A DNA stretch of 64,000 bases from Acutalibacteraceae bacterium (lineage in GTDB: Bacteria; Bacillota; Clostridia; Oscillospirales; Acutalibacteraceae). The stretch is taken from NCBI GenBank assembly GCA_045652105.1, contig JAZRTP010000031.1, positions 23,011-87,010 of the forward strand, in the 5' to 3' direction. Positions 15,361 through 32,542 of this stretch are shown in pieces (within the stretch, counting starts at the first letter, position 1; each line of letters starts with the position of its first letter). A program made the translations under genes and the position numbers. A model generated the notes under the pieces. The model did no database searches. It saw nothing but the letters and a program-made list of their open reading frames with translations, and had not been told where the DNA came from.

Positions 15361-16791
15361 TTATTTTTTCAGCTGTTCAAGAAGCTGTTTGCCGTGATTT
15401 CTGATTTCAATGACAAGGTCACTGCTGCGGTTTAAGTAGCAGCGTCTTTTTGAAAGGAAACGGTATTCTCCCTGCTTGAGAGCCATAACCACAAGACCGC
15501 CCACAAAGGCACAGCCGAGAATGATGAAAAACAGAGGAAGACGGCAGGTCAGAAAATCACCTGAACGCAGAGGAAGAGTGAAGCTCATATAAATTTCACC
15601 CTGCTCAAAAAGGTCAGCATAGGTGTAATCCACTGCACCGAAGGTGTAATTTCCCGTTGTATAACGGGGCAGTGAGCCGTCGGTATAGGCTGTGTTGACA
15701 ATGCCGAAAAGGGCTGTCAGAACACCGCCGAGAGCGGAGCCGACCATAAAGCCGGGAATCATTGTGAAGGGGCTTCTCATTGCAAGAGGCATTGAGGGAG
15801 CAACGGTGAGCTTGATGTTTTCAAAGAATGCATTGATGGGACCCGTTGTTGCAAAGTTGAAGTCATCAGTGTCAACACAGCCGCCCTTTTTGAAAAGCTT
15901 GCAGTTGAGCATGCCGAAGAATGCTGTCCAGCCAACTGAAATGAAGCATACGGAATAAATTGTGATAAGCTGAGCATTGCCTGTTGAAAGGTAAGCCGCA
16001 GTTGCAACGGAAAAGGCTGAAAGTGAAACGGGCCCGATGAGGTCAAAGCCCACCATAAGACCCATCACAAGAGCTGTGAGAATCACATTTGAATTTGAAA
16101 GCTCCGCCAGAAAGCTGCCGAGAGCTTTAGAAATTGCTTCAAAGGGAACCTCAATGCCGTATTTCACAAGCAGGAAGGTCATTGCAGCTGAAGCAACGGG
16201 AAGAATGAGAACAAGAACAATAAGATCAACACCGTCAGCAATATCAATACCCTTGATTGTGTCAGGGATTGCCTTGATTTTCTTTCTCAGCTTTGTAACA
16301 AGAGAGTCAATGCCTGAGCCGATTGAGACCTTAAGCCTTGTCCAGCCGGCATAAAGCAGCTTGATCATAAGGCCGAGGAATACCGCCATAATCAGATAAC
16401 CCATATAACCGATTGCAGTAGCATCGGCATAGTTTGAGGGGGTTGCAAAAAAGCAGCGGTAAATTTCTGTTGCATCAGCCGAGGGTGCTGTGAAATGTGC
16501 AAAGTAAACCGAAAGCGCAAGAGCGGGAGCAATTGCGGGGATGCCTGCAATCAGATAAGCAAGAACAACGGCAAGTGCAACAAAGAAGAAATCAGTTGCC
16601 CAGAAAAGAATAAACCAGAGAGTTGGCTCATTTTCCGCACCTGTCCAGCCAAAGATGTGATAAGACTGAAAAATGTTCTGGACAACGAAGAAGAAACCTG
16701 CACCGAGGGCTCCGAAGAGCTGAACAATGAACATAATGGAGGTTGCTCTGTAAATTTTTTCCTTGGTGTCAAGATAAAGATTTTTGATCAT
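15361..16791 (-). CDS. Polytopic membrane protein, divergent PTS fructose-family EIIC-like permease (no EIIA/EIIB partner in the window)
   Basis: There are about 10-12 hydrophobic helices. GLMVGFDLIGPVSLSAF and APSMPLAMRSPFTMIPGFMVGSALGG resemble the EIIC-Fru motifs (MAFDMGGPVNKAAY; EGAIPFA..DP.RVIP), but with substitutions. The gene starts 23 nt after the fhs stop. Confidence 0.45.
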   Translation of the reverse strand: MIKNLYLDTKEKIYRATSIMFIVQLFGALGAGFFFVVQNIFQSYHIFGWTGAENEPTLWFILFWATDFFFVALAVVLAYLIAGIPAIAPALALSVYFAHFTAPSADATEIYRCFFATPSNYADATAIGYMGYLIMAVFLGLMIKLLYAGWTRLKVSIGSGIDSLVTKLRKKIKAIPDTIKGIDIADGVDLIVLVLILPVASAAMTFLLVKYGIEVPFEAISKALGSFLAELSNSNVILTALVMGLMVGFDLIGPVSLSAFSVATAAYLSTGNAQLITIYSVCFISVGWTAFFGMLNCKLFKKGGCVDTDDFNFATTGPINAFFENIKLTVAPSMPLAMRSPFTMIPGFMVGSALGGVLTALFGIVNTAYTDGSLPRYTTGNYTFGAVDYTYADLFEQGEIYMSFTLPLRSGDFLTCRLPLFFIILGCAFVGGLVVMALKQGEYRFLSKRRCYLNRSSDLVIEIRNHGKQLLEQLKK

Positions 16792-19293: not shown

Positions 19294-19316
19294 GCGCCAA
19301 TGTGCTTGACATTGGC
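19294..19316 (+). terminator. Hairpin terminator between convergent genes
   Basis: CGCCAATGT-GCTTG-ACATTGGCG followed by GTCTTCTTTATTT. Confidence 0.55.
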
Positions 19317-19341
19317 GGTCTTCTTTATTTCAAAGGGAGGG

Positions 19342-20796
19342 TCAGATAGCAACCTCATTGATGTGAGCAATGACTGATCTTGCAAGGTCAACAAGATTTC
19401 TGCCGTAGTAGTCACTGGGAGCGTTGAAGCGGTCAACGCAGATAGCATAGTTGCGTCCGTTATAGCTGTAGCCGATGAGGATGTAACAATGATTATACTT
19501 TTTTTGGTTGTCGGTTTGTGCTGTGCCCGTTTTCCCAATAACATAGCCGTAGTTCTTGCCTTCCTCATCGAAACCGTAGCCTCCGCCGCCTTCCTTGCCG
19601 CCGTCTGTTGCGGTGTTGTGAAGGAGCTTCTTAAGCTTGCTTGCTTCAATGGGACCGAGAGCGTTCTTGGTCAGATACTCTGTTTTGCCTTTATGTACTG
19701 ACTTACCTTCATTTGTGATTTCCTTGATAAGATAGGGCTTTACCATATCTCTGCCTTCACTGATGACGGCTGACATTATTGCGGTCAGATGCAGAGGTGA
19801 GATCTGTGTTTTGCCCTGACCGTAACATGAGCTAGCGAGCTCAAACACAGGGTCTTCACCTTTGAATGAGTAGCCTGAATTAAGGGTTGTAAAGTCAAGC
19901 TCAATACTCTTTCCGATATGGAAGGACTCGAAGAGCTCACTGACTCTTTCGGCTCCAATCAGAAGACCTCTTGTTGCAAAGTAGGTGTTGATACTCTGGT
20001 TGAGAGAGCGCTGAAGATTGACAACTGTTTTTCCGTCGGGCGCTGTTCTGTTGGCTGAGTCAGCGGTAAAGTTATAAATAGGCTTGCCTGCTGGCGTGAT
20101 ATAGGGGTCTTCAAGAACATACTCCTGTTCAATGTCATATCTGATGATACCAAGGGCAATCAGAATCTTGATAACCGAGCCTGCGGTATGACTGCTTGAA
20201 ACGGCTGAATTGAGCATACTGCCGGGGTAGGAGATATAGGTTGAGTAGTTCTCCTTCAGCTTATTGGCGTCAAAGCTGACTTTCTGATGACCGCGTGCAG
20301 CCATACAGAGAATTTCACCTGTGTCACTATCAATTACAGTGATATTGCCGGCAAAGCCCTTGTCCTCAAGAAGACTGTAGGCAAAGGACTGAAGATTGAT
20401 GTCCAGGGTCAGCTGAACATCTGCACCCACGCCGTCAAGGCCCGAATCCATGTCAAAGAGCTCGTGGCTGAGCTTCTTTCTGAGTCCTGAAAGATCTGAG
20501 CCGTTTCTTATGCCGATGATGTTGCTGAGCTCATGGGTGTAAAGAATGGTTGAAGCCTTGCCCGCTGTGTCGTTGCTGCTCGTAAGAGGCACATTGTTGC
20601 GGTCATAGAAGGTGCCTTCAATGTTGTTGTTGAGGTAATAGTCCTTCATCAGTTCATTACGCTTGGCATCAGCCTGGGGGTTGATGTTCGGAATGATACC
20701 TGTCTGATAAACAGTTATGAAGGAAAGGGAAAGCACAAGGACAGTGACGATGGTTGCAATGAGAGAAAGGCGCTTTTTGCTGTTTTCTGTGTTCAT
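19342..20796 (-). CDS. Class B penicillin-binding protein (PBP2/FtsI-type transpeptidase)
   Basis: N-terminal TM anchor LSLIATIVTVLVLSLSFITVY. SxxK (SVIK), SxN (SIN) and KTGT occur in canonical order. The start lies 3 nt after the stop of the SEDS gene. Confidence 0.85.
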   Translation of the reverse strand: MNTENSKKRLSLIATIVTVLVLSLSFITVYQTGIIPNINPQADAKRNELMKDYYLNNNIEGTFYDRNNVPLTSSNDTAGKASTILYTHELSNIIGIRNGSDLSGLRKKLSHELFDMDSGLDGVGADVQLTLDINLQSFAYSLLEDKGFAGNITVIDSDTGEILCMAARGHQKVSFDANKLKENYSTYISYPGSMLNSAVSSSHTAGSVIKILIALGIIRYDIEQEYVLEDPYITPAGKPIYNFTADSANRTAPDGKTVVNLQRSLNQSINTYFATRGLLIGAERVSELFESFHIGKSIELDFTTLNSGYSFKGEDPVFELASSCYGQGKTQISPLHLTAIMSAVISEGRDMVKPYLIKEITNEGKSVHKGKTEYLTKNALGPIEASKLKKLLHNTATDGGKEGGGGYGFDEEGKNYGYVIGKTGTAQTDNQKKYNHCYILIGYSYNGRNYAICVDRFNAPSDYYGRNLVDLARSVIAHINEVAI

Positions 20797-20799
20797 ATT

Positions 20800-22842
20800 T
20801 TAAGCCTCCTTAATTTCGGCTGCGGTGGGTTCTTCCTTGTGAGTCGTCTGAGTTTTCTGAGGGGGGACAACCTCCTTACGCATTGCATAAAGAATGATGA
20901 TTGTCATACAGATGTTAGCGGTAAAGGATGTAATGCCCTGTGACAGAAAGGCTGTTGTCATACCCATTATCGGAAGAATGCCCACACTCATTCCAAGCTG
21001 TATGAGTGATTGTAAAGATATGCAAACACCGAAGCCCATTGATGAAAGGGAGAGAGCCTCGTCCTTTTGTGAATAAGAATTGACCAGAACAAGAAGGAAC
21101 TGAAGGGTATAAATGAAGAGTAAGATCAGCACCATGCCTAAGCCGAGCTGAAGCAGGGCGTAACTGAAAATGGAATCGTTATGCTTGTTGGGAATTTGCT
21201 CAAGAAGATTTTCGTTTGTTTCTGTTCCGAGCCACTTGGTCATTCTCAGAGCATTGACAATCTTTGTTGAATGATACTGACTTCCTGCAAGGTCGAGTCT
21301 TTCGAGAATCTTGTAATAGAGCTTGCTGATCATCAGTGATCCGCTGTTCAGATCTTCGATGTTTTTGAGACAAACGAGAGTGAATTCAAAGGAATAATAT
21401 CCGTTTTCAAGCTTGGTTATATCTGAGAAATGCTCAAGGGAAACGTTTTCGTCAAGGTCAATACCGCTTTTCAGTGCGGCACGAAGAGCATTGGCGGTTG
21501 CTTTTGAATTCTTGTCCTTGCAGACAATTGTGATAAGGTGTCTTGCGTTGAGGATTTTGCCGAGCTCTTCATTGTTTTCCTGCTTTGCCTGAACGATATA
21601 GCGGGAATAGGAGATATACTCCTTTTTGCCCGGGGCAACCTCTGCATCCTCTTCCTTGAGAACGGAGGTATAAGCCTCTGAATTAAGATAATCGGCTGTT
21701 GCACTTTTGTCACCTGAGAGAGCCTTCCAGGCTTCAAGCTCAATGCTCTGCATTGCTGTTGAGGTCTGAACTGAGATGTCGTAATCATTTTCATAGCAGC
21801 TCTTTGCAACTGAAAGACCGATGATGACAGCAACTATACCCCACAAAGCAAGGGTAAGAAACTTTTTGATTTCTTTGGTGCTGATGAAGGTAATGATGAT
21901 GAAAGAGAACAGAAGAATCATGATTGTGCCGAGCTCGAAGGCGAGAGCAAACACTCCTGAAAGAGCAACCAGATAAGCTGTGGCAAGAGTCAGACGCTTC
22001 TTTTCGGAATATTCTCTGAAGGAGTAGATGTTGCCGAAGACGAACACCGCAGCAACCTTCACAAGCTCTGAAATCTGGATGGATGTGTCTCCGATTTTAA
22101 ACCAGTTGGCAGCTCCGTTTGTTCTTTTGCCCATAACAACCAGAGCACCGATTGCAAGCACTGTGCCCACTGCAATAATCAGTGTGAAGAGCTTTCTTTT
22201 GGGTGAACGCAGAATACAGATGATTCCGCCTGCACCCACACAACCGCCGATGACGCCGATGCCCATAGTTATAATGAGCTTTGTCAGACCCGTGTAGGCA
22301 AGCATTGTCTGAAGAAGCACACCCGTTGTGATAAGCACACAGGTCAGGAAAGTATATAAGACAGCGGTTGAGCTGTAAGGGTTAAGGAAGGCGGCAAGAA
22401 ACAGCAGCAGACCGTTCATTGCAAGGATAACGAAGAAGGTCTTCATATATTCACTTGCAGAGCCGTTTTTTGTTGCAATGCCTCCGCAAAGAAGACTGTA
22501 AATGGTAATTGCGCCGATTGAGAGGAGGAATTTGCTTCTGAAGGCTGATGTTCTGAGATCTGGGAGTCTCACGGCAATGTTAGCAGTCTCAGCCTCAAGG
22601 AGTTTTACTGTTGCTTTTTTGATTTTGATGATACCCTTAAAGAGACGGTTGAAGAGCGTTACAACGAAGAAAATGAGCTTTCTGAAGACCTTGCCGATTT
22701 TGCTGACAAGGTCCTTGAGCTTACCGGATGAGACACGGTCTTCAACACAGCAGCCGTTGTCATAGCAGCTGTCATATTCGTTATATTCTACGGTTACGAT
22801 ATCCTTTTCCGCTGCTGCGGGAAGATTCTTTTCCTTTGACAT
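20800..22842 (-). CDS. SEDS-family (FtsW/RodA/SpoVE) peptidoglycan polymerase with a ~95-aa N-terminal extension and an enlarged extracytoplasmic loop
   Basis: GAANWFKIGDTSIQISELVKVAAVFVFG matches the SEDS block (..iQPSE..K). The C-terminal blocks are PNKHNDSIFSY (canonical HTDFIF) and GILPIMGMTTAFLSQG (canonical lP.tG..lPf.SyGG). At 680 aa it is much longer than the usual ~370-420 aa. Confidence 0.85.
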   Translation of the reverse strand: MSKEKNLPAAAEKDIVTVEYNEYDSCYDNGCCVEDRVSSGKLKDLVSKIGKVFRKLIFFVVTLFNRLFKGIIKIKKATVKLLEAETANIAVRLPDLRTSAFRSKFLLSIGAITIYSLLCGGIATKNGSASEYMKTFFVILAMNGLLLFLAAFLNPYSSTAVLYTFLTCVLITTGVLLQTMLAYTGLTKLIITMGIGVIGGCVGAGGIICILRSPKRKLFTLIIAVGTVLAIGALVVMGKRTNGAANWFKIGDTSIQISELVKVAAVFVFGNIYSFREYSEKKRLTLATAYLVALSGVFALAFELGTIMILLFSFIIITFISTKEIKKFLTLALWGIVAVIIGLSVAKSCYENDYDISVQTSTAMQSIELEAWKALSGDKSATADYLNSEAYTSVLKEEDAEVAPGKKEYISYSRYIVQAKQENNEELGKILNARHLITIVCKDKNSKATANALRAALKSGIDLDENVSLEHFSDITKLENGYYSFEFTLVCLKNIEDLNSGSLMISKLYYKILERLDLAGSQYHSTKIVNALRMTKWLGTETNENLLEQIPNKHNDSIFSYALLQLGLGMVLILLFIYTLQFLLVLVNSYSQKDEALSLSSMGFGVCISLQSLIQLGMSVGILPIMGMTTAFLSQGITSFTANICMTIIILYAMRKEVVPPQKTQTTHKEEPTAAEIKEA

Positions 22843-22868
22843 TTCAATATCGTCCTTTCCGTTTGAAT

Positions 22869-23444
22869 TTAATATTTGCGGGGAGCTGAGGGTGGGATGA
22901 AGACCCTTTCTTCTTCAGCTTTTTCGGCCTTTGCTGAAGACTCTTCCCTTGCGGGAGGAGTCTTCACGGGAGCTTTGAGCTTTGACTGAGCCTTTTGTGA
23001 AACGGGTGCCGAAGGCGGTACGAAGGAAGTCTCGACAGTGTTGTTTGCTTCTTCCTGCTCGGGAACGTTGACATTAACGCAGGTATTGTCAGGCTCAGCG
23101 GAAGCTTTCTGCTTACCATTAAGCTTTCTGCGGTTTAAGGCGGGCGGTGTCGGAGGAGTAAAGCTTTTATCGGGGTCCGATATGGGTACCGCCTTGACGG
23201 GCTTGTCTTCCTTGACAGAATTTTCCTTTGTCTCGGGAGACTTATTATGCGGAGTAATCTTCTCGGAAGATTCATTGCCGACGTGGCCGCGTTTCTCTCT
23301 TGCAGGGCGTGACTGCTTTTCGGTCTTTTGAGGATTGTCCTGAAGATCGAAGATTTTATAGAAGATTTTATAGATAGTCCAGCTTATGATGCCAACACCT
23401 GCGATGGCGGAAAGGAAGAATATCTGAGTCCAGAAGCTTGCCAT
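22869..23444 (-). CDS. Single-pass membrane protein with a Pro/Lys/Glu-rich cytoplasmic tail carrying three F-x-P-P-(S/T)-(A/P)-P motifs
   Basis: N-terminal TM segment WTQIFFLSAIAGVGIISWTIY. The rest is low complexity and includes SFTPPTPPA, SFVPPSAPV and VFIPPSAPR. It sits in an operon with the SEDS gene. Confidence 0.6.
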   Translation of the reverse strand: MASFWTQIFFLSAIAGVGIISWTIYKIFYKIFDLQDNPQKTEKQSRPAREKRGHVGNESSEKITPHNKSPETKENSVKEDKPVKAVPISDPDKSFTPPTPPALNRRKLNGKQKASAEPDNTCVNVNVPEQEEANNTVETSFVPPSAPVSQKAQSKLKAPVKTPPAREESSAKAEKAEEERVFIPPSAPRKY

Positions 23445-23487
23445 TGAATAATCATCTCCTTTTGATGTTTTCCGTCAACACAAGAAA

Positions 23488-24354
23488 TCAGAACTTGTTT
23501 ACGTTGTCATCCTTTTTGAATCTGATGGTATTATTTGATCTGACGAAGGCGGCCTTGCCGGGAGTGAAGACCTTTGCGTCAGGAGTGAAGACCTTTGTGC
23601 CGGAAGTGTTTTCAATCACGGGAGGCTCAAAGGCTTCCTCTGATGAGAAATCATCTTCGATGGAATCGAAAATAAAGGGGTCAATATCGGGATTCTGAGG
23701 CTCAACAAATCTGAACCACTGTCTGCCGAGGCAGAAAAGGGTTCCGTCGAAAAGCTCCATTGTTGAGTAATCCTTGGGGAATTCCTTTGCTTTGCCTTCA
23801 TTGAAGTCATAGTAGAAGATGGGATTGATTGTTCTGTCTCCGTCCTTCAGACGGTCAGGGAGTCTGACGATATCCTTTCTGTAAGAAAGAGCAGGAGCAC
23901 CTGAAGGTGAGGTATAGATATAGTATGCATTTGAAGAAAATGCTCTTGTGTAGGGTGATTCTTCAACTGTAATCTGGTTGTAAAGTCTTTTGACTCCCTT
24001 ACGGTTAATGTTGATGCAAATCGGATCATCTGAGTAATCAATGTTGTAAGAATGAAGCACATTGCCGTTGCTTGAATCAAGCTGCTGAATAATGCCTCTG
24101 CCAAACAGCTCAGTTTTGCCGGAGCTTGATGATTCGTTTTCTTTAAGGCCGTTGATGATTTTTTTGAGTTCGGGGAAGGACTCCTTGTGTCTGGGCTGAG
24201 GAGCCGTCTCGGGTAAGCAGTCTGAGATGTCGTTGTCGTCTTTATTTTTCTTTGAGGGAAGAAAACTGAGGAGCTTGTCCTTGTTCTGCTTGACGATGAG
24301 ACCTGCAATGATAAGTACAAGTGCGATGATGATGAAAATTGAAAGTTTGTCCAT
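23488..24354 (-). CDS. Single-pass membrane protein with a cytoplasmic globular domain (weakly FHA-like end motif)
   Basis: The TM segment LSIFIIIALVLIIAGLIV is followed by a Lys-rich stretch, which predicts a cytoplasmic C-terminus. ELFDGTLFCLGRQWFRFVEP resembles the terminal L.DGD.i.lG...f.F strand of FHA domains, but the upstream GR/SxxH motifs are not clear. RBS is AAGGAG. Confidence 0.6.
   Translation of the reverse strand: MDKLSIFIIIALVLIIAGLIVKQNKDKLLSFLPSKKNKDDNDISDCLPETAPQPRHKESFPELKKIINGLKENESSSSGKTELFGRGIIQQLDSSNGNVLHSYNIDYSDDPICININRKGVKRLYNQITVEESPYTRAFSSNAYYIYTSPSGAPALSYRKDIVRLPDRLKDGDRTINPIFYYDFNEGKAKEFPKDYSTMELFDGTLFCLGRQWFRFVEPQNPDIDPFIFDSIEDDFSSEEAFEPPVIENTSGTKVFTPDAKVFTPGKAAFVRSNNTIRFKKDDNVNKF
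23561..23597 (-). repeat. 21-nt in-frame tandem duplication (GGAGTGAAGACCTTTG x2 on the plus strand) encoding (A/T)KVFTP x2
   Basis: Copies at 23561..23576 and 23582..23597 are identical. The protein reads GTKVFTPDAKVFTPGKAAF. Confidence 0.85.
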
Positions 24355-24418
24355 GGTTATTTCTCCTTTGAAATAAAAAAATTTTTTTCGGACTTATGTT
24401 TCGTCCGATTTCGCTGCT

Positions 24419-24447
24419 ATGATAACACAGAAAAAATACTTCGTCAA
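24419..24447 (-). promoter_or_regulatory. Sigma-A-like promoter (TTGACG-17-TATCAT, with a TG extension) for the membrane-protein/SEDS/PBP operon
   Basis: Read on the minus strand. The leader contains the hairpin TCGGACGAAACATAAGTCCGA. Confidence 0.5.
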
Positions 24448-24592
24448 TGCAAAAATTCATAGTAAGTTCATTTTTCCGTCATAAATAGTGAAACTGAAAA
24501 AACAAGAAAAAAGCGATGTCAGAGCTGTAAAAAAAGCCCTTTAAAAAACCGCCAAAAATAGAGAAATCCTTAATATCACTGGAAAAAAGGAC

Positions 24593-24621
24593 TTGAAAAA
24601 CAGCTTGAAAGCATTTATAAT
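24593..24621 (+). promoter_or_regulatory. Sigma-A-like promoter (TTGAAA-17-TATAAT) for the six-gene signalling operon
   Basis: Hexamers and the 17-nt spacer counted directly. It lies 72 nt upstream of the ATG at 24693 and about 145 bp from the divergent promoter. Confidence 0.6.
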
Positions 24622-24692: not shown

Positions 24693-25979
24693 ATGAAGGA
24701 AAAAAAGGTAAAGGACAAGGCAGCGGAACCCAGAACAAATTTTAATGTTGCTGTGAGAAAAAAGGACACCTATGATCTGCTTACAGACATCATTGATATT
24801 TCTGTGATCAAGGATACTGATGTTGAAAAGTTTGCTGAAGGACTTGCGACGGTAAGAAATGATGTAGGCACCGCATGGGAAAATTTTTTCCCCGGATTCA
24901 GAGAGCAGTTTAAAGATATGCGTCCCCGTATTAAAAATAAGGATATTGAAGAGGGACTCGGTGTTGAAGAAAGTACAGTCACAAGATTCAAGCACTCCGT
25001 TCCTGCCAAGCGCAGCCAGCTTATCGGTCTTTGCATTATGTACAAGCAGGATTTAGCCAACACAAGAGAAATTATCACCAGATTTGAATACCGTGATTTC
25101 AGTACCACTGATCTGGATGATTGCATTTATACATATATTCTGAGCAACAACACAGAGCATCGTACTCCGAAGGCAACCTTTGAAAGAATAAAAAATATTC
25201 TTGACTTTAAGATTGCCGAGGCTGAAAGCGCTCAGCAGCTTATTGAAAAGGATGAGTATATTTTGCCGGATGGCAAGATTGTCTACAGAAACAGAGCTCT
25301 TACGCTGTCAGCAAATAAGATGGCAGATTTTGAAAAGGAGCTTACTGAGTCTCTGACCGGCTTTGACAGCTTCTGTGATTTCGTTGTCAGAAACAGAGCT
25401 TATCTCGGAAAAGAAGATGACAGAATTATCAGAAGAATTAAAAAGATGGTTTCAAAGGCTGAAAATCCCGACACCGAAGCTTCTCAGAGCTTTGCAAATT
25501 CTCTTTTCAAAAACAAGAGCTTCCGCGAAAAGTTTTACAGAGTAATCGAAGGCCGAGTTCCCATTACCCGTGACTTTCTTATTCTTCTTTGCCTTCATCT
25601 TAAAAAAGGCAGAGCAGATATTGACGAAATGCTTACAAAGGCTGGCTACAGCATTCTTTTCCGCAAGGATCTTCTTGACTTGATGCTTATTTATATCTGT
25701 GAATGGCTTTATGTAAAAGCTCCTGCTGTTTTCACCAACGATCTTACCGAATATATGGAAACTGTTCTGACGGAGCCTGAAACCCCCGAGGAGACGTTGA
25801 AAAGAGAAATGGAAGCAAAAATTCTCTTTGATGAAGTTATGAATAAGGGCTATACAAATTATCTTGATAAAAAAATGGGTGAGATTCTTTCGATGGAGTC
25901 TGTTGTGGATGCTTACGGAAACAATGATGTTATGAAAGGAATCGAAGCCTTCAGAAGTCTTCTTGTAACGGAGGATTAA
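24693..25979 (+). CDS. 428-aa cytosolic protein with two Xre-like helix-turn-helix segments (operon gene 1)
   Basis: I prefer the ATG at 24693 (AAGGAGAG RBS). The HTH-like stretches are KDIEEGLGVEESTVTRFKHSVPAKRSQLIGLCIMYKQDL and GRVPITRDFLILLCLHLKKGRADIDEMLTKAGY. There is no TM segment. Confidence 0.55.
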   Translation: MKEKKVKDKAAEPRTNFNVAVRKKDTYDLLTDIIDISVIKDTDVEKFAEGLATVRNDVGTAWENFFPGFREQFKDMRPRIKNKDIEEGLGVEESTVTRFKHSVPAKRSQLIGLCIMYKQDLANTREIITRFEYRDFSTTDLDDCIYTYILSNNTEHRTPKATFERIKNILDFKIAEAESAQQLIEKDEYILPDGKIVYRNRALTLSANKMADFEKELTESLTGFDSFCDFVVRNRAYLGKEDDRIIRRIKKMVSKAENPDTEASQSFANSLFKNKSFREKFYRVIEGRVPITRDFLILLCLHLKKGRADIDEMLTKAGYSILFRKDLLDLMLIYICEWLYVKAPAVFTNDLTEYMETVLTEPETPEETLKREMEAKILFDEVMNKGYTNYLDKKMGEILSMESVVDAYGNNDVMKGIEAFRSLLVTED

Positions 25980-25980
25980 T

Positions 25981-27525
25981 ATGCTTTCAATTTACAGCTC
26001 TTTGCTTAACCGCATCTATGCACACGGCGGAAAAATGAAGACTCACGTTGTTCTTCATTCCAGCTGTGTGCTGGACGGAGAAATGGATAAACTGTTTTCA
26101 GACAGTCTCATATCAAATTTTTATACATTTTATATGTTTGAAGACAGCCGATATGAAGCCCTTCTTCTCAGAAAAAGCAAAATCGGCAGTATTTCACGGA
26201 ATGCTCATCTGCTTACAGCCAACACAGAAGTGTTTGAGGGCATCAACCTTCGTGACTGCTACGGAAAAAAAAGAACAGTCTATAAAATTATTGATATGTT
26301 CAGTCCCTCTGCTGAGAACCGTACTGTTTTTGCATTCTGCGATCCCTCGGCGGCAGAAGAGTTCGTCACAAATGTTGTGCCCGGTGTAAGAGAAAAGTTT
26401 GAGGCGGTTAATAATAATATTGATTATTCGGGTTATGAGCATCTGAGTATTCTGTGCTTCAATTACTTTGGCGGTGCTCTTGACATCGGCAGCTCTTATA
26501 CCTCACCGCTTAAGCTGAAATATTTTTCGGCAGGTAACTTTGATCTCTGGCATATGAGAGAAAAGCCGCAGATTATCAATACTGTTGATACAAACGGCTT
26601 CAGCACAGAAATGTCACAGTTTTTTTATATAAACGGTAACAAGATTGCCTGTGTCAGCAGAAAGAGTCTTAAGCGCATTTATCAGGGCAGCTTTGCCGAA
26701 ATTTATGAAATAGACGGTGTTGATGAGTTGAAGGGAAAGCTTATCAAGATTCTTAAAAATCCTCCTTCAGATGAAAACTTTGCAAGATATATATCGGGAC
26801 TTTCAAGATTCAGAAGAATCTTTGGTGACCGCATTGCTTTTCCCGAGGCTGCGGTTTATGATGAAAAAAGCAGATTCTGCGGCTTTATGATGAGTAAGGC
26901 TGACTGTTTTCAGTTGAATGATCTGCCCGATTATGTCGGTTTTCGTGACTTTGACTCGGACCGTATTGAAAGCCATCTGCTTGAATGCGGCCGCTACGCT
27001 TCAGAGATAGCTTTGCTTTTGCTTGAAATGAGGCTCTTCGGTCTTTCAATGACAGATATTTCCGGCAGAAATATCTGCTTCAGAAAAAAGGATAACAGTG
27101 TATTTTTGGTTGATGCAGACAGCATTGAGTTTCAGGGCTTTATTTTCGGAGAGTGGTTCTGCACTCCCGGATATTCATGTGAAAACATTTCCCGCTGCGG
27201 CAAAAGGGAATATTATTTCCTTGCTAATTTTATGGAATTTTCACTGTCGGTGCTTCTTTTCCGTCTTTATTTCCGTTCAAATCCCCTTGTGAACAACGGA
27301 GCTGATTTTGATACAGATTATGAGGACTGGAAGCAGGCTTTACAGTCTCCCTTTAAAATCAACAAAATCTCCTCAGACAGTGCCTATCTTGCCCGTCTTC
27401 CTGAAAAAGTCTGGTGTAAAAGCTTCAGCGATGAGCAAAGAAGGGCATTCATCAAGTCCTTTAATGATGAAAAGATTTATACCATAGGTCAGTGGATAAA
27501 AATATTGGATTTAATTTCGGAGTAA
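25981..27525 (+). CDS. 514-aa protein: unknown N-terminal domain + divergent protein-kinase-like C-terminal domain (operon gene 2)
   Basis: The start is 1 nt after the previous stop. Motifs occur in kinase order: QGSFAEIYEI, KLIKILK, MTDISGRNICF (D-x4-N), FLVDADSIEF, TPGYSCEN. Confidence 0.5.
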   Translation: MLSIYSSLLNRIYAHGGKMKTHVVLHSSCVLDGEMDKLFSDSLISNFYTFYMFEDSRYEALLLRKSKIGSISRNAHLLTANTEVFEGINLRDCYGKKRTVYKIIDMFSPSAENRTVFAFCDPSAAEEFVTNVVPGVREKFEAVNNNIDYSGYEHLSILCFNYFGGALDIGSSYTSPLKLKYFSAGNFDLWHMREKPQIINTVDTNGFSTEMSQFFYINGNKIACVSRKSLKRIYQGSFAEIYEIDGVDELKGKLIKILKNPPSDENFARYISGLSRFRRIFGDRIAFPEAAVYDEKSRFCGFMMSKADCFQLNDLPDYVGFRDFDSDRIESHLLECGRYASEIALLLLEMRLFGLSMTDISGRNICFRKKDNSVFLVDADSIEFQGFIFGEWFCTPGYSCENISRCGKREYYFLANFMEFSLSVLLFRLYFRSNPLVNNGADFDTDYEDWKQALQSPFKINKISSDSAYLARLPEKVWCKSFSDEQRRAFIKSFNDEKIYTIGQWIKILDLISE

Positions 27526-27528
27526 AAT

Positions 27529-28164
27529 ATGAAAAGAGATATATTTATTGTTGTTGACAAAACGGCAGTTCCGAAGGAAACAGATTCTTACAGACTCAGA
27601 AAAAACTTCGAGGATATAATCAGAGCTATACCTCACGGCTTCAGCTTTCTGAATACGGAGGTGGACTATTCAGTCAGTCTTCTGAGCTTTTCTGATAAGT
27701 TTTCACCTGATGTGAATATTCATGACAGATTTCTGTCTGTTTCAAATGAGCCGGATATTGCAGCCGTTGCCAATGCGGAAAAAGCTGATATGCTCGTGCC
27801 CTGGGGACCGATAAGAGCCTGCATTGATATGGGTCTTTCAGAATACCGCAGATGCCTGTTGAAGAAAATCAGCATCAAGCCGCCCGTTATCATTTTAATC
27901 AGCGGCGGAGATTTCTGTAAAAGCTCCCGTACAGAATATTTTTCTGAAAGATGGGGCAGTCTCACTGATGAGCTGAGGTTTTACGAAAAAACGGGTATGC
28001 TCGAAATCAAGGCTGTTGCAATTTCATCAAAAGATGGTTTCTTTAACGACAAATATATTTCAGCCTTATCTCTAAAGGCTGAAAATGTTATTTCCGTTAA
28101 TCTTGATTCAGACCGAAAGGTTATAATTGAAACAATGAAAAGAATATACAGACAGGAGATATGA
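27529..28164 (+). CDS. 211-aa vWA-like protein with a degenerate MIDAS (operon gene 3)
   Basis: The beta1 position reads IFIVVDKTAVP (DKTAV in place of DxSxS). The later position reads PPVIILISGGDF where L(T/S)DG is expected. Its size and beta-alpha periodicity parallel the next gene. Confidence 0.45.
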   Translation: MKRDIFIVVDKTAVPKETDSYRLRKNFEDIIRAIPHGFSFLNTEVDYSVSLLSFSDKFSPDVNIHDRFLSVSNEPDIAAVANAEKADMLVPWGPIRACIDMGLSEYRRCLLKKISIKPPVIILISGGDFCKSSRTEYFSERWGSLTDELRFYEKTGMLEIKAVAISSKDGFFNDKYISALSLKAENVISVNLDSDRKVIIETMKRIYRQEI

Positions 28165-28168
28165 AAAA

Positions 28169-28927
28169 ATGAGATATATGGATCTTATTGTTGTGGCTGA
28201 CCGATCAACATCCCTTGATCAGCATATTGTTAAAGTCAATACTATTCTCAGCTATATCAGAAATTTAATCAAATTCAATCCTCTTTTTGCCGGTGTATAT
28301 CTTTCTGTTTTGCAGTTCCCTGTCAGGCCCGGTGAGGATCCCTTTTACATCAAGGGTCTGTTTGCCGGAAATGACCAGTCAGACGGCCCAATCAAACTGA
28401 CCGCCTGGGGTAACACAAATCCCGCAGCTGTACTTAACAAGGCGGCAGAATATGCCCTGGAGCGTTACGATGCTCTTAAGAGTGATGAAAATTTAAGAGG
28501 TGCGGAAATTGCCCACCCTCTGATTATTTTCTTAAACGACGGAAGACTCAGCGCCGGAACCGACACCGAAGGCGGTACCGTTGACCCTGAAGAGCAGCTG
28601 ATTGTTGAAAAAGCATATGATTTGGTCTGTGAAAAAATCAGACGCCTTGAAGCACAGAGAAAGTTTCAGGTAAGAGCCTTCGGTATGGGAAGCGCTGATA
28701 TAGCCTCTTTGAAAAAACTCACAGGCAAAGAGGAATATACCTATGACTTTACAGATGGCAGCTTAGAAAATTATGACCTTACCAATATGCTCGCTCAGTT
28801 GTGTGCCAAGGTCTTTGAGGCAACCAGCAAATATATCGGAGCAGGTGATATGGCCGCAAAACAGGTTGTTGAGCTGACCCCCGAGCTGAGAGAGACCATC
28901 GGCGGCATTCTGGCTAACTTAATTTAA
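28169..28927 (+). CDS. 252-aa vWA (TerY-like) protein with an intact MIDAS (operon gene 4)
   Basis: LIVVADRSTSLD gives DxSxS at 28199..28213. GNTNPAA supplies the MIDAS Thr region and LIIFLNDGRLS the Asp position. Confidence 0.65.
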   Translation: MRYMDLIVVADRSTSLDQHIVKVNTILSYIRNLIKFNPLFAGVYLSVLQFPVRPGEDPFYIKGLFAGNDQSDGPIKLTAWGNTNPAAVLNKAAEYALERYDALKSDENLRGAEIAHPLIIFLNDGRLSAGTDTEGGTVDPEEQLIVEKAYDLVCEKIRRLEAQRKFQVRAFGMGSADIASLKKLTGKEEYTYDFTDGSLENYDLTNMLAQLCAKVFEATSKYIGAGDMAAKQVVELTPELRETIGGILANLI

Positions 28928-28942
28928 GCAGAGGTTGATAGT

Positions 28943-30742
28943 ATGCGAATACTTAATTTTTTAGGACAAGGACGTTATCATACGGAAAAAGAAATTCCTT
29001 GTCAGGACAGCCTTCTTTACCGTCAGACAAAAAACGGCAGATGGGTGTTTGCAGTTTCCGACGGCTGCAGCTCAAGTAAATTTTCTCACTTCGGTTCAAA
29101 AGCTGTTGTGAAGGCTGTTGCAGATTTCTTTGAAAATTACGAAGGAGAGCTTTCGGACAGTAATCTTAAGCAGGAGCTTCTTGATTATATGGTTGAAAGA
29201 CTTAAAGCGAAGGGCAGACAGCTGAGGACTTATGACCTGAGCGACCTTTATGCAACAGTTGTTTTTCTCGTTTCGGAAAAAGGTAAATTTCTTGCGGGAC
29301 ACATTGGTGATGGTGCATTGGTATGCTTCGGTGAAGCGGAAAGACTGTTCATTTCCGACCCTGAAAATGCGGGAGCTGCAAACGTAACCTATTTTGTGGG
29401 CAGTGAGTCCGCCGGAAATCATTTTCACCTTTCCCTTATTGATGCCGAGGGTGAAAATCAGCTGAGAAACCTTATTCTCTTTTCCGACGGTCCGCAAAAA
29501 ATGTTTGCGGAAAAGGGAAGAGGTGATATTACAAAGGGTGTCACTGAAATCATTTCAAAGGTCAGGGCGGAAGAAATTAATTCCTACAAGTCTCTGAAGG
29601 AATATCTTTTCGGTCAGGCTGTCACATCAATTTATGACATTGACGACGACTGGTCGCTGATTGTTGTTGATACTGAGCTTGACGAAGCAGAAAAAGAAGC
29701 TGATTTCAAGGCTGATCATATGACCTTGTCCTTTTATGAAAAATATCTTGAGCAGAATCCCGACGCGGCAGCTTATGTTATTCCGAAAATCAATAAATTC
29801 AGGGCAGAGCTGAATCTGGAGCCTCTTGCCGCACCCAAAAATAAGGAGTTGTCCTTTGAGGCTCTTTTTGAAAAGCTTCAATCAGAGTATGACTCTGCGG
29901 GTAAGAAAAATTCCCTTGAATCAAAGGATGTATCCTTTGAAAATGTAAATGCACCTCAGAAATATGTGCCCTCTGAAAAAGGGAAGACATCCGTTAAGGC
30001 TGATGAGGCTCAGCATAAGGAAACTGAAATTTCCGGTCAGGACATAGAAGATGATGTCTTTGAAAAATTATGGAAGCAGGCTTGGAGTGTTCAGACGGCT
30101 GTTGAAGAAGCGGGACATTTTGAACCTGTCACGTCGGAGAAAGAGGATGAGAAGACGGATGATGAAATCAGCGGCTTTTTGGAGGATTTTATTCAGGCTC
30201 TGAACACAGCTTCCGAAATGAAGCCGTCTCAGTCTGTCAGTCCGGCAGAAGCTGAAGAGCCTTGCGGGAAGTCGGAAACGGAAAATGTCTCCTTTGAAGA
30301 AAGACTCGAAAAAATCCGTGCAAATGCTCATGTAGCTGAGGCAGAGGATTCTGAAATAAAGACAGCTCAGTCTCAGGTGAAGCCGAAAACTGAAAAACAG
30401 TCAGTACCCGATGAAAAACAGAGTGTCGGGGCTGATGCTCCCTCACAAGAGGCTGAAGCCAAGGTTAAAGCTGCTGATGTGAAAAGACAGGGATTTGAAA
30501 AAATTTCCGTTGCGCCGGAAAGTATAGCAAACTTTCTTGCTCCCGACGAAAGCAATAATTATGACAGTGATGCCTTTTTCGGTCAGCGGGAGAATGAGAA
30601 AAAGGCGGGGAGATTAAAAAGCTTCTTTAAAGAACGTTTCAGAAGAGTTACCTCTGAAATTTATGATGAGGATGAAGACGAAGAAGAGGACGAGGATTTT
30701 TACGAAATCTTTGACGATGATTTTGAAGAACAGGAGGAATGA
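28943..30742 (+). CDS. PP2C-family (PP2C_2-like) Ser/Thr phosphatase fused to a ~350-aa acidic low-complexity tail (operon gene 5)
   Basis: Phosphatase motifs EIPCQDS, FAVSDGCSSS, GHIGDGALV and LILFSDGP are present. The tail is rich in E/D/K/S and ends DEDEDEEEDEDFYEIFDDDFEEQEE. Confidence 0.75.
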   Translation: MRILNFLGQGRYHTEKEIPCQDSLLYRQTKNGRWVFAVSDGCSSSKFSHFGSKAVVKAVADFFENYEGELSDSNLKQELLDYMVERLKAKGRQLRTYDLSDLYATVVFLVSEKGKFLAGHIGDGALVCFGEAERLFISDPENAGAANVTYFVGSESAGNHFHLSLIDAEGENQLRNLILFSDGPQKMFAEKGRGDITKGVTEIISKVRAEEINSYKSLKEYLFGQAVTSIYDIDDDWSLIVVDTELDEAEKEADFKADHMTLSFYEKYLEQNPDAAAYVIPKINKFRAELNLEPLAAPKNKELSFEALFEKLQSEYDSAGKKNSLESKDVSFENVNAPQKYVPSEKGKTSVKADEAQHKETEISGQDIEDDVFEKLWKQAWSVQTAVEEAGHFEPVTSEKEDEKTDDEISGFLEDFIQALNTASEMKPSQSVSPAEAEEPCGKSETENVSFEERLEKIRANAHVAEAEDSEIKTAQSQVKPKTEKQSVPDEKQSVGADAPSQEAEAKVKAADVKRQGFEKISVAPESIANFLAPDESNNYDSDAFFGQRENEKKAGRLKSFFKERFRRVTSEIYDEDEDEEEDEDFYEIFDDDFEEQEE

Positions 30743-30745
30743 TAA

Positions 30746-32542
30746 ATGGATTTAAGTACAAAAAAAAGCGGAAGTGTTATTGTAACTAAGGATGAGATAA
30801 AGGATATTTTCAACAATCATTATATGCAATTCAAAAAGAAAACCGGAGGTGATCACTCCTGGAGAGTTGATAAAAGAACCGATTTCGGCGGCGGTTTTTC
30901 TGATATTTACAAAATTAAAAACAGTGTGGGAGAGAAAGGCATCCTCAAGGTTCTTTCGGCAAAAAGAACTGTAAACAACGGTGAAAATATAGAGGCGTCA
31001 AAAATCTTTTCGATTGCTTATAATGAAATTTTCACAATGAGGCTTTTCACCTTGCTTGAAGATGAATCCGAAGCAAACGCCAGTACTCTCAACGGTTATT
31101 ATGAATACCGCACAACCTATAAAAAGGAAGACGGAACAGAAGCAGATGATTGGATTTTCTTTATCATTATGCCTGAATATGAAACCCTCGGAAATTGCCG
31201 TTTAAGCAGTGAAAAGGATATTTATGATATTGCTTTATCCATTCTTAAAACCCTCAGAGTTCTTAACGAGCGAGTTAATTACATTGACCTTTATGACTGC
31301 TTCAAAAGAGAAGGGATACTTTCCTTTAATCCGGATTTTTTAAGTGAAAAAGATCTGGAAAATTATAAAAATTTCCGCAGAGTGCTTCATAATGATATAA
31401 AGCCCGATAATATTCTCAAAAAGATTATGGGTAATGATTATGTTACTGTTCTTGCCGATTTCGGTGCAGTGTGCTTTATGGACGATGACGGCAAGGCAAT
31501 TGTCCGCTATGGCTCCAAGCCGTACTTTGATCCTCAGCTTATAAGGAATCGAGGCGTAATAAAAAACGGTGCCACTAACAGTGATATATATTCTCTTGGA
31601 ATCACTCTTCTGAGCCTTTTCTATATTATCGGAAATCTGCCCTTTACAAAAATTTCAAGATATACAAGTAAATTTGCAGATTATGGAGATAAGTTTAAAG
31701 AAGAGGCAGAAAAGGATAAAAACAGTCTGAATCCCGACGTTCTTCAGAAGCCTGAATTTATTTCAGATTTATTCTGGAAGATCATTATGAAAATGATCAG
31801 CAAATTTGAATGGGACAGATTTTCTGATGTCAATCAGGCAATCTCAGCTCTTACAGACCGTGTGGTTGTTTCGAGAATTTCAGAAGAGAACTTTCCTCCT
31901 GAGATTATCGCAAAGACATCTCTCTGGAATCTTCTTCACGAAAACAAAATTTCAGAGTTAAACAAAGTTATTGTTGACGAATACGAAAGACAGAAAGAAG
32001 AAGAAACTGAAAATTATCTTTTTACTGTTCTTTTTGCCTTTGTTTATGCATGTGGTATAAAAGAAGACGACAATGCAGAAGCTAATATTAAAAATGTCAA
32101 GTCTCTTCTTGATCCTTATATGGACGATGGACGCGACGGTGCCTGGTTTGTATATGATATAATTGTTATGCTTGCCAAAAAAAAGGGAATTTTTTCCGGA
32201 AATTCGGAGACTGTCATTGATGCAAGAAAAAATCTCAAGCATCTGTGTAACGTTGGCTTCCTTCCTGCTGTGTATTTTTATATGTCACTGACCGTTCAGG
32301 GCGAACCGGAATATGACGAGAGCTCGGAATATATCCTTAAAAAGCTTGACAATCTGCTCGAATATCCTTACATACCCGGTGTCAGACTTTACCGTGATGT
32401 ACTTAAACGCAATCCTTGTCTTCTGAACCTTGATGATGAAACCAAGGAAAAAAAGCTTGATATAATCAGAATGGAGTTCAAGGATGACATTTCCGATTAT
32501 CTTGCAATTGTCAAATATCTCCTCGAGAACGACAGCAAATAA
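30746..32542 (+). CDS. Soluble Hanks-type Ser/Thr protein kinase with a ~230-aa alpha-helical-repeat C-terminal domain (operon gene 6)
   Basis: Kinase motifs: GGGFSDIYKI (Gly loop), ILKVLS (Lys), HNDIKPDNIL, LADFGAV, SKPYFDPQ, SDIYSLGITLLSL. There is no TM or PASTA domain. Confidence 0.85.
   Translation: MDLSTKKSGSVIVTKDEIKDIFNNHYMQFKKKTGGDHSWRVDKRTDFGGGFSDIYKIKNSVGEKGILKVLSAKRTVNNGENIEASKIFSIAYNEIFTMRLFTLLEDESEANASTLNGYYEYRTTYKKEDGTEADDWIFFIIMPEYETLGNCRLSSEKDIYDIALSILKTLRVLNERVNYIDLYDCFKREGILSFNPDFLSEKDLENYKNFRRVLHNDIKPDNILKKIMGNDYVTVLADFGAVCFMDDDGKAIVRYGSKPYFDPQLIRNRGVIKNGATNSDIYSLGITLLSLFYIIGNLPFTKISRYTSKFADYGDKFKEEAEKDKNSLNPDVLQKPEFISDLFWKIIMKMISKFEWDRFSDVNQAISALTDRVVVSRISEENFPPEIIAKTSLWNLLHENKISELNKVIVDEYERQKEEETENYLFTVLFAFVYACGIKEDDNAEANIKNVKSLLDPYMDDGRDGAWFVYDIIVMLAKKKGIFSGNSETVIDARKNLKHLCNVGFLPAVYFYMSLTVQGEPEYDESSEYILKKLDNLLEYPYIPGVRLYRDVLKRNPCLLNLDDETKEKKLDIIRMEFKDDISDYLAIVKYLLENDSK

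Follow-up and report, generated by a model that had tools for sequence, protein, structure and literature searches.

In a 64,000-nt stretch of DNA from an Acutalibacteraceae bacterium (contig JAZRTP010000031.1, positions 23,011 to 87,010; hereafter the window, in which all coordinates are numbered), two divergently transcribed operons form a ten-gene unit, which we refer to as the divergon. The minus-strand operon encodes a SEDS peptidoglycan glycosyltransferase, a class B penicillin-binding protein (bPBP), and two membrane-anchored proteins, A1 and A2. The plus-strand operon encodes helix-turn-helix (HTH)-like, kinase-like, von Willebrand factor A (vWA), PP2C phosphatase, and Hanks-type kinase proteins. 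All ten genes are strictly co-inherited. We consider it fairly probable that the divergon is a self-contained peptidoglycan synthase that is controlled by phosphorylation through its cytoplasmic parts. The theme of phosphorylation-controlled cell-wall synthesis is already known; the combination of parts here is new. An earlier note on this DNA had interpreted the two operons as a regulatory circuit for a specialized peptidoglycan synthase, and this interpretation is supported as far as computation reaches.

Results

The minus-strand operon contains the genes for A1, A2, the SEDS protein, and the bPBP in this order, with open reading frames (ORFs) of 288, 191, 680, and 484 amino acids (aa), respectively. 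The intergenic gaps computed from the ORF coordinates are 43 nt (A1/A2), 26 nt (A2/SEDS), and 3 nt (SEDS/PBP), and a Shine-Dalgarno-like sequence lies upstream of each of the four genes. This recomputation returned the same four genes and gaps as the earlier note had listed. The plus-strand operon comprises six genes, which encode the HTH-like, kinase-like, vWA-like, vWA, PP2C, and Hanks kinase proteins in this order. Between the convergent PBP and ECF-transporter genes, a hairpin at 19295..19317, the T-run of which is weak on the minus strand, is the likely end of the SEDS/bPBP operon.

The synteny of the two operons was examined using the relatives of A1 and, independently, a relative of the kinase-like protein as starting points. 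All ten genes were found in the same order and orientation in L001 (identical to L003; an Acutalibacteraceae metagenome-assembled genome [MAG]), L053, L002, and L056. A 9.5-kb contig that was reached separately via the kinase-like protein and via A1 proved to be one contig (L057/L058); it carries the six signaling genes and A1, with A2 cut by the contig end. A truncated contig (L054) carries the four-gene operon together with the beginning of the gene that diverges from it. The co-occurrence of the operons, which the earlier note had proposed as a check, was thus observed in every related locus with enough contig (five complete or near-complete and one truncated), and, on every contig of sufficient length, family members were accompanied by the partner operon. 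Protein identity to the window ranges from 27 to 90% (90% is that of the PBP in L001) and from 27 to 50% in L002 and L056. The flanking genes are common to the window, L001, and L053 and different in L002 and in L056, giving at least three contexts. Since the flanks differ between these loci, the ten-gene unit has been preserved through rearrangement.

The divergon is confined to a few uncultured Oscillospirales (gut-type Clostridia) and is extremely rare. Word-index searches returned at least four relatives of the kinase-like protein and at least six of the SEDS protein, while JGI metagenome scans with the same two proteins gave no relatives. Scans of IMG/VR viral contigs and a tblastn search of PLSDB plasmids also gave no relatives. 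The ten-gene combination was not found described in a literature search.

A1 (23488..24354, minus strand; 288 aa) consists of an N-terminal transmembrane (TM) helix, a linker, a beta domain that is predicted to be cytoplasmic and to adopt an FHA fold, and a disordered tail with two VFTP motifs (23560-23592). The TM helix (aa 5-21; 24292..24342, minus strand) is followed by the sequence KQNKDK. Because Lys-rich sequence follows a single TM helix, the positive-inside rule predicts that the C-terminus of A1 is in the cytoplasm. The distant A1 relative P0009 has two TM helices and a Lys-rich N-terminus, which implies the same cytoplasmic topology for the A1 domain. The earlier note had described A1 as a TM helix with a cytoplasmic domain and A2 as a TM helix with a Pro-rich tail, and the predictions, based on a hydrophobic helix with Lys-rich flanks, agree with both descriptions.

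No match to A1 was found by sequence in Pfam, NCBIfam, PADLOC, or a PDB profile search. An AlphaFold model of A1, which was built on three sequences, has an all-beta core at aa 85-220 (23695..24102, minus strand), with block confidence (pLDDT) values of 55-84 and of 74-84 from approximately residue 140. The best 50 Foldseek matches of this model in the PDB were FHA domains in 50 out of 50 cases (probability 0.9-1.0), and the compact matches had target-normalized template-modeling scores of 0.6-0.75 and a root-mean-square deviation of about 4 Å. They include mycobacterial FhaA, GarA, EmbR, and Rv0020c; the MviN pseudokinase-FhaA complex (3oun) is at rank 18, and YscD, PscD, and a type III secretion protein are at ranks 25, 35, 41, and 46. 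The predicted structure of A1 has the eleven-stranded beta-sandwich fold of FHA domains. Therefore, we predict that the A1 domain has an FHA fold without membership of the family at the sequence level. The earlier note had called this protein at best weakly FHA-like; the likeness was retained at the level of the modeled fold and not in sequence profiles or hhalign comparisons.

An exhaustive HMMER search of 1.84 billion representative proteins with an A1 profile gave 10 matches, 8 of which are true relatives. P0010 and P0011 were discarded as short low-complexity matches. An Arg or Lys residue follows strand 3 in seven of the eight family members, and the sequence SSNAYY is conserved at the strand 4-5 loop. 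This Arg/Lys and the Ser-Ser of SSNAYY are candidates for the positions at which the phosphothreonine-binding Arg and Ser would sit.

A2 (22869..23444, minus strand; 191 aa) combines a TM helix at the N-terminus (aa 6-26) with a disordered tail rich in Pro, Ser, Thr, and Lys. Its C-terminus is also predicted to be cytoplasmic because Lys-rich sequence follows the single N-terminal hydrophobic helix. The tail (22881-23165) carries three [SV]F[TVI]PP[ST][PA]P motifs, which echo the two VFTP motifs of the A1 tail. The tails of A2 orthologues carry their own lineage-specific tandem repeats, such as the four copies of GEHPFEIVRPTV in L054. The name adaptor is only a label for A2, and its role is putative.

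The SEDS protein (20800..22842, minus strand; 680 aa) is a divergent peptidoglycan glycosyltransferase. It matched PF01098 (FTSW_RODA_SPOVE) with 95.3 bits (cut-off 26.4) in two stretches that are split by an insertion. D556, E259, and K262 align with D255, E108, and K111 of Thermus thermophilus RodA and are invariant in the orthologues and the outgroup; judging from these retained catalytic residues, the protein should be an active glycosyltransferase. It scored far below the NCBIfam equivalog cut-offs for RodA (98 versus 337), FtsW (90 versus 338), and SpoVE (44 versus 449), and strict membership of the pair in RodA/MrdA, FtsW, or SpoVE/SpoVD was ruled out by the equivalog scores. No second SEDS gene was found within the window. 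Two parts of the protein are unusual. An N-terminal extension of approximately 100 aa (22543..22842, minus strand) is predicted to be cytoplasmic and has a conserved RLPxL[RK][TS] motif directly before TM1. An insertion of approximately 200 aa (21208..21804, minus strand) occupies the large extracellular loop between TM7 and TM8; it is conserved in six of the six orthologues, is absent from the outgroup of FHA-SEDS proteins, and has no relative in the PDB or Pfam.

The PBP (19342..20796, minus strand; 484 aa) is short and consists of a TM anchor (aa 11-29), a short N-terminal module, and a transpeptidase domain (PF00905, 114 bits versus a cut-off of 22.1). The motifs S207-V-I-K, S268-I-N, and K422-T-G are intact, and these transpeptidase motifs together with the N-terminal membrane anchor place the protein in class B. 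The pedestal/dimerization domain PF03717 gave no Pfam match, and the anchor is separated from the transpeptidase domain by only approximately 120 aa. This short N-terminal module resembles that of the PbpA-type proteins 3un7 and 4jbf, and the relatives of the PBP in the PDB include PbpA of Mycobacterium tuberculosis.

None of the products of the plus-strand operon contains a hydrophobic segment or a PASTA match, which agrees with the earlier description of the kinases as soluble and non-PASTA. The last three genes encode the vWA protein, the PP2C phosphatase, and the Hanks kinase. The 252-aa vWA protein (28169..28927, plus strand) has the DxSxS...T...DG residues of the metal ion-dependent adhesion site (MIDAS). 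Its match to the Pfam VWA profile is weak (E 0.025) and covers nearly the whole profile, and the L002 orthologue likewise gave a weak VWA match. D11, S13, T83, D124, and G125 are invariant, and the MIDAS is complete. The PP2C phosphatase (28943..30742, plus strand) has a PP2C_2 domain at aa 10-211, a long acidic low-complexity tail, and no TM helix. The soluble Hanks-type Ser/Thr kinase (30746..32542, plus strand) has neither a TM helix nor PASTA domains. Its catalytic motifs are complete (K68, E94, HND215-217, N222, and DFG238-240), and it is of the non-RD type, with HND instead of HRD. Its C-terminal region of approximately 230 aa has no CxxC pairs and no Pfam match and appears helical and repeat-like by sequence. 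The preceding gene encodes a 211-aa vWA-like paralogue with a degenerate MIDAS motif (27529..28164, plus strand), which hhalign related to the vWA family with 98.4% probability (E 8e-15). The vWA proteins reported by the earlier note are thus present as two paralogues, with MIDAS residues in the second.

The first two genes of the operon encode the HTH-like and kinase-like proteins. The 428-aa soluble protein (24693..25979, plus strand) is a putative regulator with an XRE-like HTH motif, LGVxxSTVxRF...PxKR. The motif is conserved in five orthologues, one of which alone gave a weak match to HTH_31 (E 0.12), and a PDB search gave no match. Accordingly, the HTH protein named by the earlier note was recovered as a conserved motif and hardly at the profile level, and we only tentatively regard the 428-aa protein as an HTH regulator. 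The start of this gene is most likely ATG 24693, which has an AGGAG ribosome-binding site and agrees with the N-termini of the orthologues; TTG 24651, the mechanical ORF start, is less likely. The 514-aa soluble protein (25981..27525, plus strand) has an N-terminal alpha/beta domain and a C-terminal protein-kinase-like domain, in which K256, D359, N364, and D378 are invariant at kinase spacing. Its sole PDB profile match was weak (the catalytic loop of MSK1, E 0.45). The best 50 Foldseek matches of a low-confidence model were protein kinases in 50 out of 50 cases (E from 2e-3). An hhalign comparison with the Hanks kinase was not significant, although the catalytic loops were aligned. The model and the invariant residues suggest that the protein is probably an atypical kinase-like protein. 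Its N-terminal part (aa 1-130; 25981-26370) contains invariant HSSCVLD and PSAAEEF motifs; this domain is the best-modeled part of the protein (pLDDT up to 90) and has no match to anything known.

Two divergent promoter-like sites stand back-to-back with 146 bp between them. The site of the SEDS/bPBP operon (24447..24419, minus strand) is TTGACG-17-TATCAT with an extended -10 TG (10 of 12 consensus matches), and that of the signaling operon (24593..24621, plus strand) is TTGAAA-17-TATAAT (11 of 12). The earlier note had placed a promoter at 24419..24447, approximately 145 bp from the divergent promoter, and both sites were found. A consensus scan of the window gave 17 promoter-like sites versus 9.0 ± 2.9 in shuffled sequences (approximately 2-fold). 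Since such sites are common in the window, both are weak evidence when taken alone. They lie inside the only intergenic gap, and L001, the closest orthologous locus, largely retains their hexamers. In the same region, the longest invariant block in an alignment of three orthologous intergenic regions is TCATAAATAGTGAAAC (24479..24494, plus strand). A second direct copy, CAAAAATAGAGAAA (24552..24566, plus strand), is kept in L001 and partly in L053. The copies of this 15-16-nt block are 73 nt apart. Because each lies approximately 30 nt upstream of one of the divergent -35 elements, the HTH-like protein may use the direct repeat as its operator.

Among species-representative genomes, the proteins most closely related to the SEDS protein and the PBP are encoded by adjacent gene pairs of Ruminococcus, Ruminococcoides, and Acutalibacteraceae. 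In these pairs, the SEDS relative is fused at its N-terminus to a TM helix and an FHA domain of canonical type (Pfam E 5e-16), and the gene for this TM-FHA-SEDS fusion is directly followed by that of a bPBP of 457-459 aa. Examples of the fusion with its bPBP (in the set L004-L052) are L026 9218-12301 and L030 278-2210; the set includes Ruminococcoides intestinale and R. bromii. The window SEDS protein is 31-36% identical to the fusions over the core and the PBP is 25-30% identical to its counterparts, the order of SEDS then PBP is the same, and A1 shares the layout of a TM helix followed by a cytoplasmic FHA domain with the N-terminal module of the fusions. In contrast, the FHA domain is canonical and fused in the relatives and is a separate, extremely diverged protein (A1) in the window, where the SEDS protein has a non-FHA N-terminal extension at the position of the TM-FHA module. 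The extracellular loop of the fusions also lacks an insertion. A1 retains no sequence similarity to the TM-FHA module of the Ruminococcus fusions. No kinase, PP2C, or vWA gene adjoins the fusion pair in two annotated loci (L026 and L005), which have housekeeping flanks, and tblastn found no relative of the window signaling proteins in any TM-FHA-SEDS locus.

The window is otherwise ordinary chromosome, with genes for FTHFS, IleRS, FGAM synthase, pseudouridine synthase, and NAPRTase and a guanine-plus-cytosine (GC) content of 44%. A defense-island or mobile-element context was considered and rejected: the flanks are housekeeping genes, the GC content is near the average, relatives were not found in viral contigs or plasmids, and PADLOC was mostly negative. 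A 1454-aa ORF at 6077-10441 contains Listeria-Bacteroides repeats together with an fn3-like segment and probably encodes a large surface protein. A 476-aa ORF at 15361-16791 without a Pfam match adjoins the formate-tetrahydrofolate ligase gene, and this adjacency recurs in L001 and L053. Beside the divergon in the three most distant loci, we noted a further conserved module (L056 15013-20556, L054 6915-12152, and L002 1-2615), which contains five co-directional genes without a Pfam match (for a 446-aa protein that resembles a lipoprotein, two membrane proteins, and two helical ones) and a divergently transcribed gene for a small PP2C phosphatase (254-256 aa). This module is absent from the window.

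Discussion

In the present study, a SEDS-bPBP pair was found in strict linkage with a protein predicted to have an FHA fold and with a kinase, a phosphatase, and vWA proteins. We infer that the synthase is phospho-dependent. The soluble kinase, and perhaps also the kinase-like protein, may phosphorylate Ser/Thr residues in membrane-proximal, disordered cytoplasmic segments, for which the A2 tail, the A1 tail, and the N-terminal extension of the SEDS protein are candidates. The FHA-fold domain of A1 would then read these marks, or would dock constitutively, and would assemble, activate, or restrain the SEDS-bPBP pair. PP2C may reverse the phosphorylation, thereby resetting the switch, and the vWA proteins may, as has been proposed in the case of TerY-P triads, serve as scaffolds that bind peptides in a metal-dependent manner. 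The HTH-like protein may set the transcription of both operons, perhaps via TCATAAAnAGTGAAA (24479-24494) and its copy at 24552-24566.

Several points weigh against this explanation. The FHA assignment of A1 comes only from a model of moderate confidence (mean pLDDT 56); FHA (PF00498) was not detected by Pfam in any of the eight A1-family members even at an E-value of 5, and hhalign comparisons of A1 with Ruminococcus FHA domains, both full length and as trimmed cores, gave probabilities of 0.1-0.2%. The sequence of the A2 tail, which is a proposed substrate, is not conserved, and conservation in A2 is confined to the TM region. The 428-aa protein was assigned as an HTH regulator at the level of a motif, and the scores of the 514-aa kinase-like protein are weak. 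Moreover, all genomes with the divergon are uncultured MAGs or read assemblies. Lastly, the candidate phosphothreonine-binding Arg is not invariant, and the canonical Arg, Ser, and Asn residues cannot be placed with certainty in A1.

This last point raises the possibility that the A1 domain is a phospho-independent FHA-like scaffold, as in YscD and EssC. A1 may hold the SEDS-bPBP pair in the manner of YscD/PscD or EssC, while the signaling proteins act elsewhere, for example on the vWA proteins themselves or on the HTH regulator, and the synthase is controlled via transcription only. YscD, PscD, and a type III secretion protein are indeed among the structural matches of A1, the GR...SxxH...NG signature is not recognizable, and profile methods gave no FHA signal. 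The HTH-like gene at the head of the signaling operon and the conserved repeat between the promoters also fit control via transcription. However, FHA domains that bind phosphothreonine make up most of the top structural matches, and in seven of the eight family members the Arg/Lys that follows strand 3 and the SSNAYY Ser-Ser lie at the places expected of the binding Arg and Ser. Furthermore, a kinase and a phosphatase in strict linkage with an FHA-fold protein represent the classical arrangement for a phospho-reader. We consider this account to be unlikely, although it is the main rival.

The phosphorylation-controlled synthase that we favor may be compared with several known systems. Actinobacteria and some Firmicutes share a conserved FHA-PP2C-RodA-PbpA-kinase cluster (PMC6554272). 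In its actinobacterial form, fhaA-fhaB-pstP-rodA-pbpA-pknA-pknB (M. tuberculosis Rv0014c-Rv0020c), the SEDS gene is directly followed by that of a short class B PBP, two small FHA/adaptor-type genes, one of which encodes a membrane-anchored protein, precede this pair, and a PP2C and two kinase-type proteins are encoded in the same locus. The window shares these features, and the linkage of SEDS and short bPBP genes with FHA-fold, PP2C, and kinase genes is kept in six further loci. In contrast to the actinobacterial cluster, the window genes form two divergent operons, the kinases are soluble with no TM helix or PASTA domain, and the PP2C is soluble, of the PP2C_2 type, and has an acidic tail, such that neither a membrane-bound PASTA kinase nor a membrane-bound PP2C is present. 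The window additionally encodes two vWA proteins and an HTH-like protein. Its FHA domain escapes recognition by sequence, the second "adaptor" has a disordered tail in place of an FHA domain, and the SEDS protein carries the large insertion in its extracellular loop. The earlier note had stated that the divergon and this cluster share a functional vocabulary. This was confirmed by Pfam for SEDS, bPBP, PP2C, and the Hanks kinase; however, A2 as an adaptor is unsupported.

The signaling operon resembles TerY-P modules, which PMC11090510 (citing Anantharaman 2012) describes as defined by a vWA-PP2C-kinase triad and as associated with many effector systems. The vWA, PP2C, and kinase genes of the window are consecutive, their products are all soluble, and the MIDAS is intact. 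However, the kinase of TerY-P triads ends in a zinc ribbon (an OB fold in defense variants), whereas that of the window ends in a region that appears helical. In addition, the vWA gene is duplicated in the window, kinase-like and HTH-like genes precede the triad, the vWA proteins have no match among the PADLOC defense models, and the "effector" is a peptidoglycan synthase instead of tellurite-resistance, restriction, or DNA-processing genes. It is possible, although we hold this view only tentatively, that the divergon is a TerY-P-type switch to which an atypical kinase and an HTH regulator have been added and which is hard-wired to its own SEDS-bPBP pair, with a cryptic FHA reader and a membrane-anchored, disordered substrate as the link.

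Two further systems are more distant. In the H1 type VI secretion system of Pseudomonas aeruginosa, the kinase PpkA, which has a vWA domain, the PP2C phosphatase PppA, and Fha1 form a threonine-phosphorylation pathway. There, the assembly of a membrane machine is switched post-translationally by this set of kinase, PP2C, vWA, and FHA-reader functions; however, the output machine is unrelated, and the vWA domain, which is located in the periplasm, forms part of a membrane kinase. The other system is the complex of the MviN (MurJ) pseudokinase with FhaA in M. tuberculosis (Gee et al. 2012, cited in PMC7286690; PDB 3oun). Kinase-like and FHA domains cooperate there at the membrane to control a step of peptidoglycan synthesis. 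In contrast to the window, the pseudokinase is fused to the flippase, whereas the window kinase-like protein is soluble and keeps the catalytic Lys/Asp/Asn/Asp, and the partner in the window is a SEDS polymerase.

The likeness to TerY-P modules also allows a different account, in which the plus-strand operon would serve as a switch in stress or conflict (anti-phage) and would have the SEDS-bPBP pair as its effector, building or remodeling wall material upon a trigger such as phage attack or envelope or metal stress. The vWA-PP2C-kinase arrangement is the hallmark of TerY-P, and some TerY-P modules act as stand-alone defense according to PMC11090510 (citing Anantharaman 2012 and Gao 2020). The Hanks kinase matched the PADLOC defense kinases mad6 (5e-14) and PD-T4-6 (1e-10), the divergon occurs in different genomic contexts, and a further variable module adjoins it in three loci. 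However, the PADLOC matches of the kinase cover the generic catalytic core only; PADLOC was silent on the vWA proteins and gave a marginal match for PP2C (E 0.007). Nucleases and other typical conflict effectors are absent, no zinc ribbon or OB fold was seen in the C-terminal sequence of the kinase, the window flanks are housekeeping genes with GC near the window average, and viral contigs and plasmids yielded no relatives. A function in conflict thus appears improbable.

We regard it as quite improbable that the synthase is specific to development, i.e., to sporulation or a change in cell shape (cf. SpoVE-SpoVD), and is timed by the signaling operon. Many Oscillospirales form spores. The SEDS protein and PBP are far from the equivalog cut-offs of RodA, FtsW, and MrdA and are thus not the canonical growth or division pair, and SpoVD and SpoVE are among the weaker matches. 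However, the SpoVE (44 versus 449) and SpoVD (83 versus 688) scores are far under membership, both promoter-like sites are sigma-70-like, no sporulation genes lie in the neighborhood, and the divergon is much too rare for a general sporulation function. Chance neighborhood or shared descent without functional coupling is very improbable because, although the window, L001, and L053 share flanks and may be mere syntenic relatives, the unit is intact in L002 and L056 despite 27-50% identity and different flanks, the 9.5-kb contig was found independently from both operons, and no operon was seen alone on a sufficient contig.

Regarding the origin of the phosphorylation-controlled synthase, the earlier note had left open whether it was convergent or highly diverged from known circuits. 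Because the window SEDS protein is closest to TM-FHA-SEDS fusions that are accompanied by a short bPBP, high divergence is more likely than convergence. The simplest history, and the most likely one, starts with the duplication and divergence of a TM-FHA-SEDS and bPBP pair of the type common in Oscillospirales. The TM-FHA part may have split off as a separate gene and diverged rapidly to become A1, and a TerY-P-like module may then have been captured.

The Ser/Thr phosphorylation-dependent control of SEDS-bPBP synthases is well studied in Actinobacteria and in Firmicutes with PASTA kinases, in which the sensor is the extracellular PASTA region. The present system differs from those studied in that a SEDS-bPBP pair and its FHA-fold partner are linked to wholly cytoplasmic parts of the TerY-P type. 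The large extracellular loop of SEDS proteins mediates activation by the bPBP. The new extracellular domain lies in this loop, which normally receives the activating signal, and suggests, if a TerY-P-type switch does govern the synthase, that the latter is gated from both sides of the membrane. To our knowledge, the cellular targets of TerY-P-type parts are largely unknown. If a TerY-P-type switch is indeed hard-wired to the synthase, this would be the first TerY-P triad with an identifiable enzyme complex as its physiological output. If the coupling of the two operons is real, the divergon may serve as a compact ten-gene system for identifying the substrate and output of a TerY-P-like switch, would provide an example of an FHA domain that drifted past sequence recognition while its genomic partners persisted, and would offer a SEDS protein with a domain of approximately 200 aa in the loop through which the bPBP activates it.

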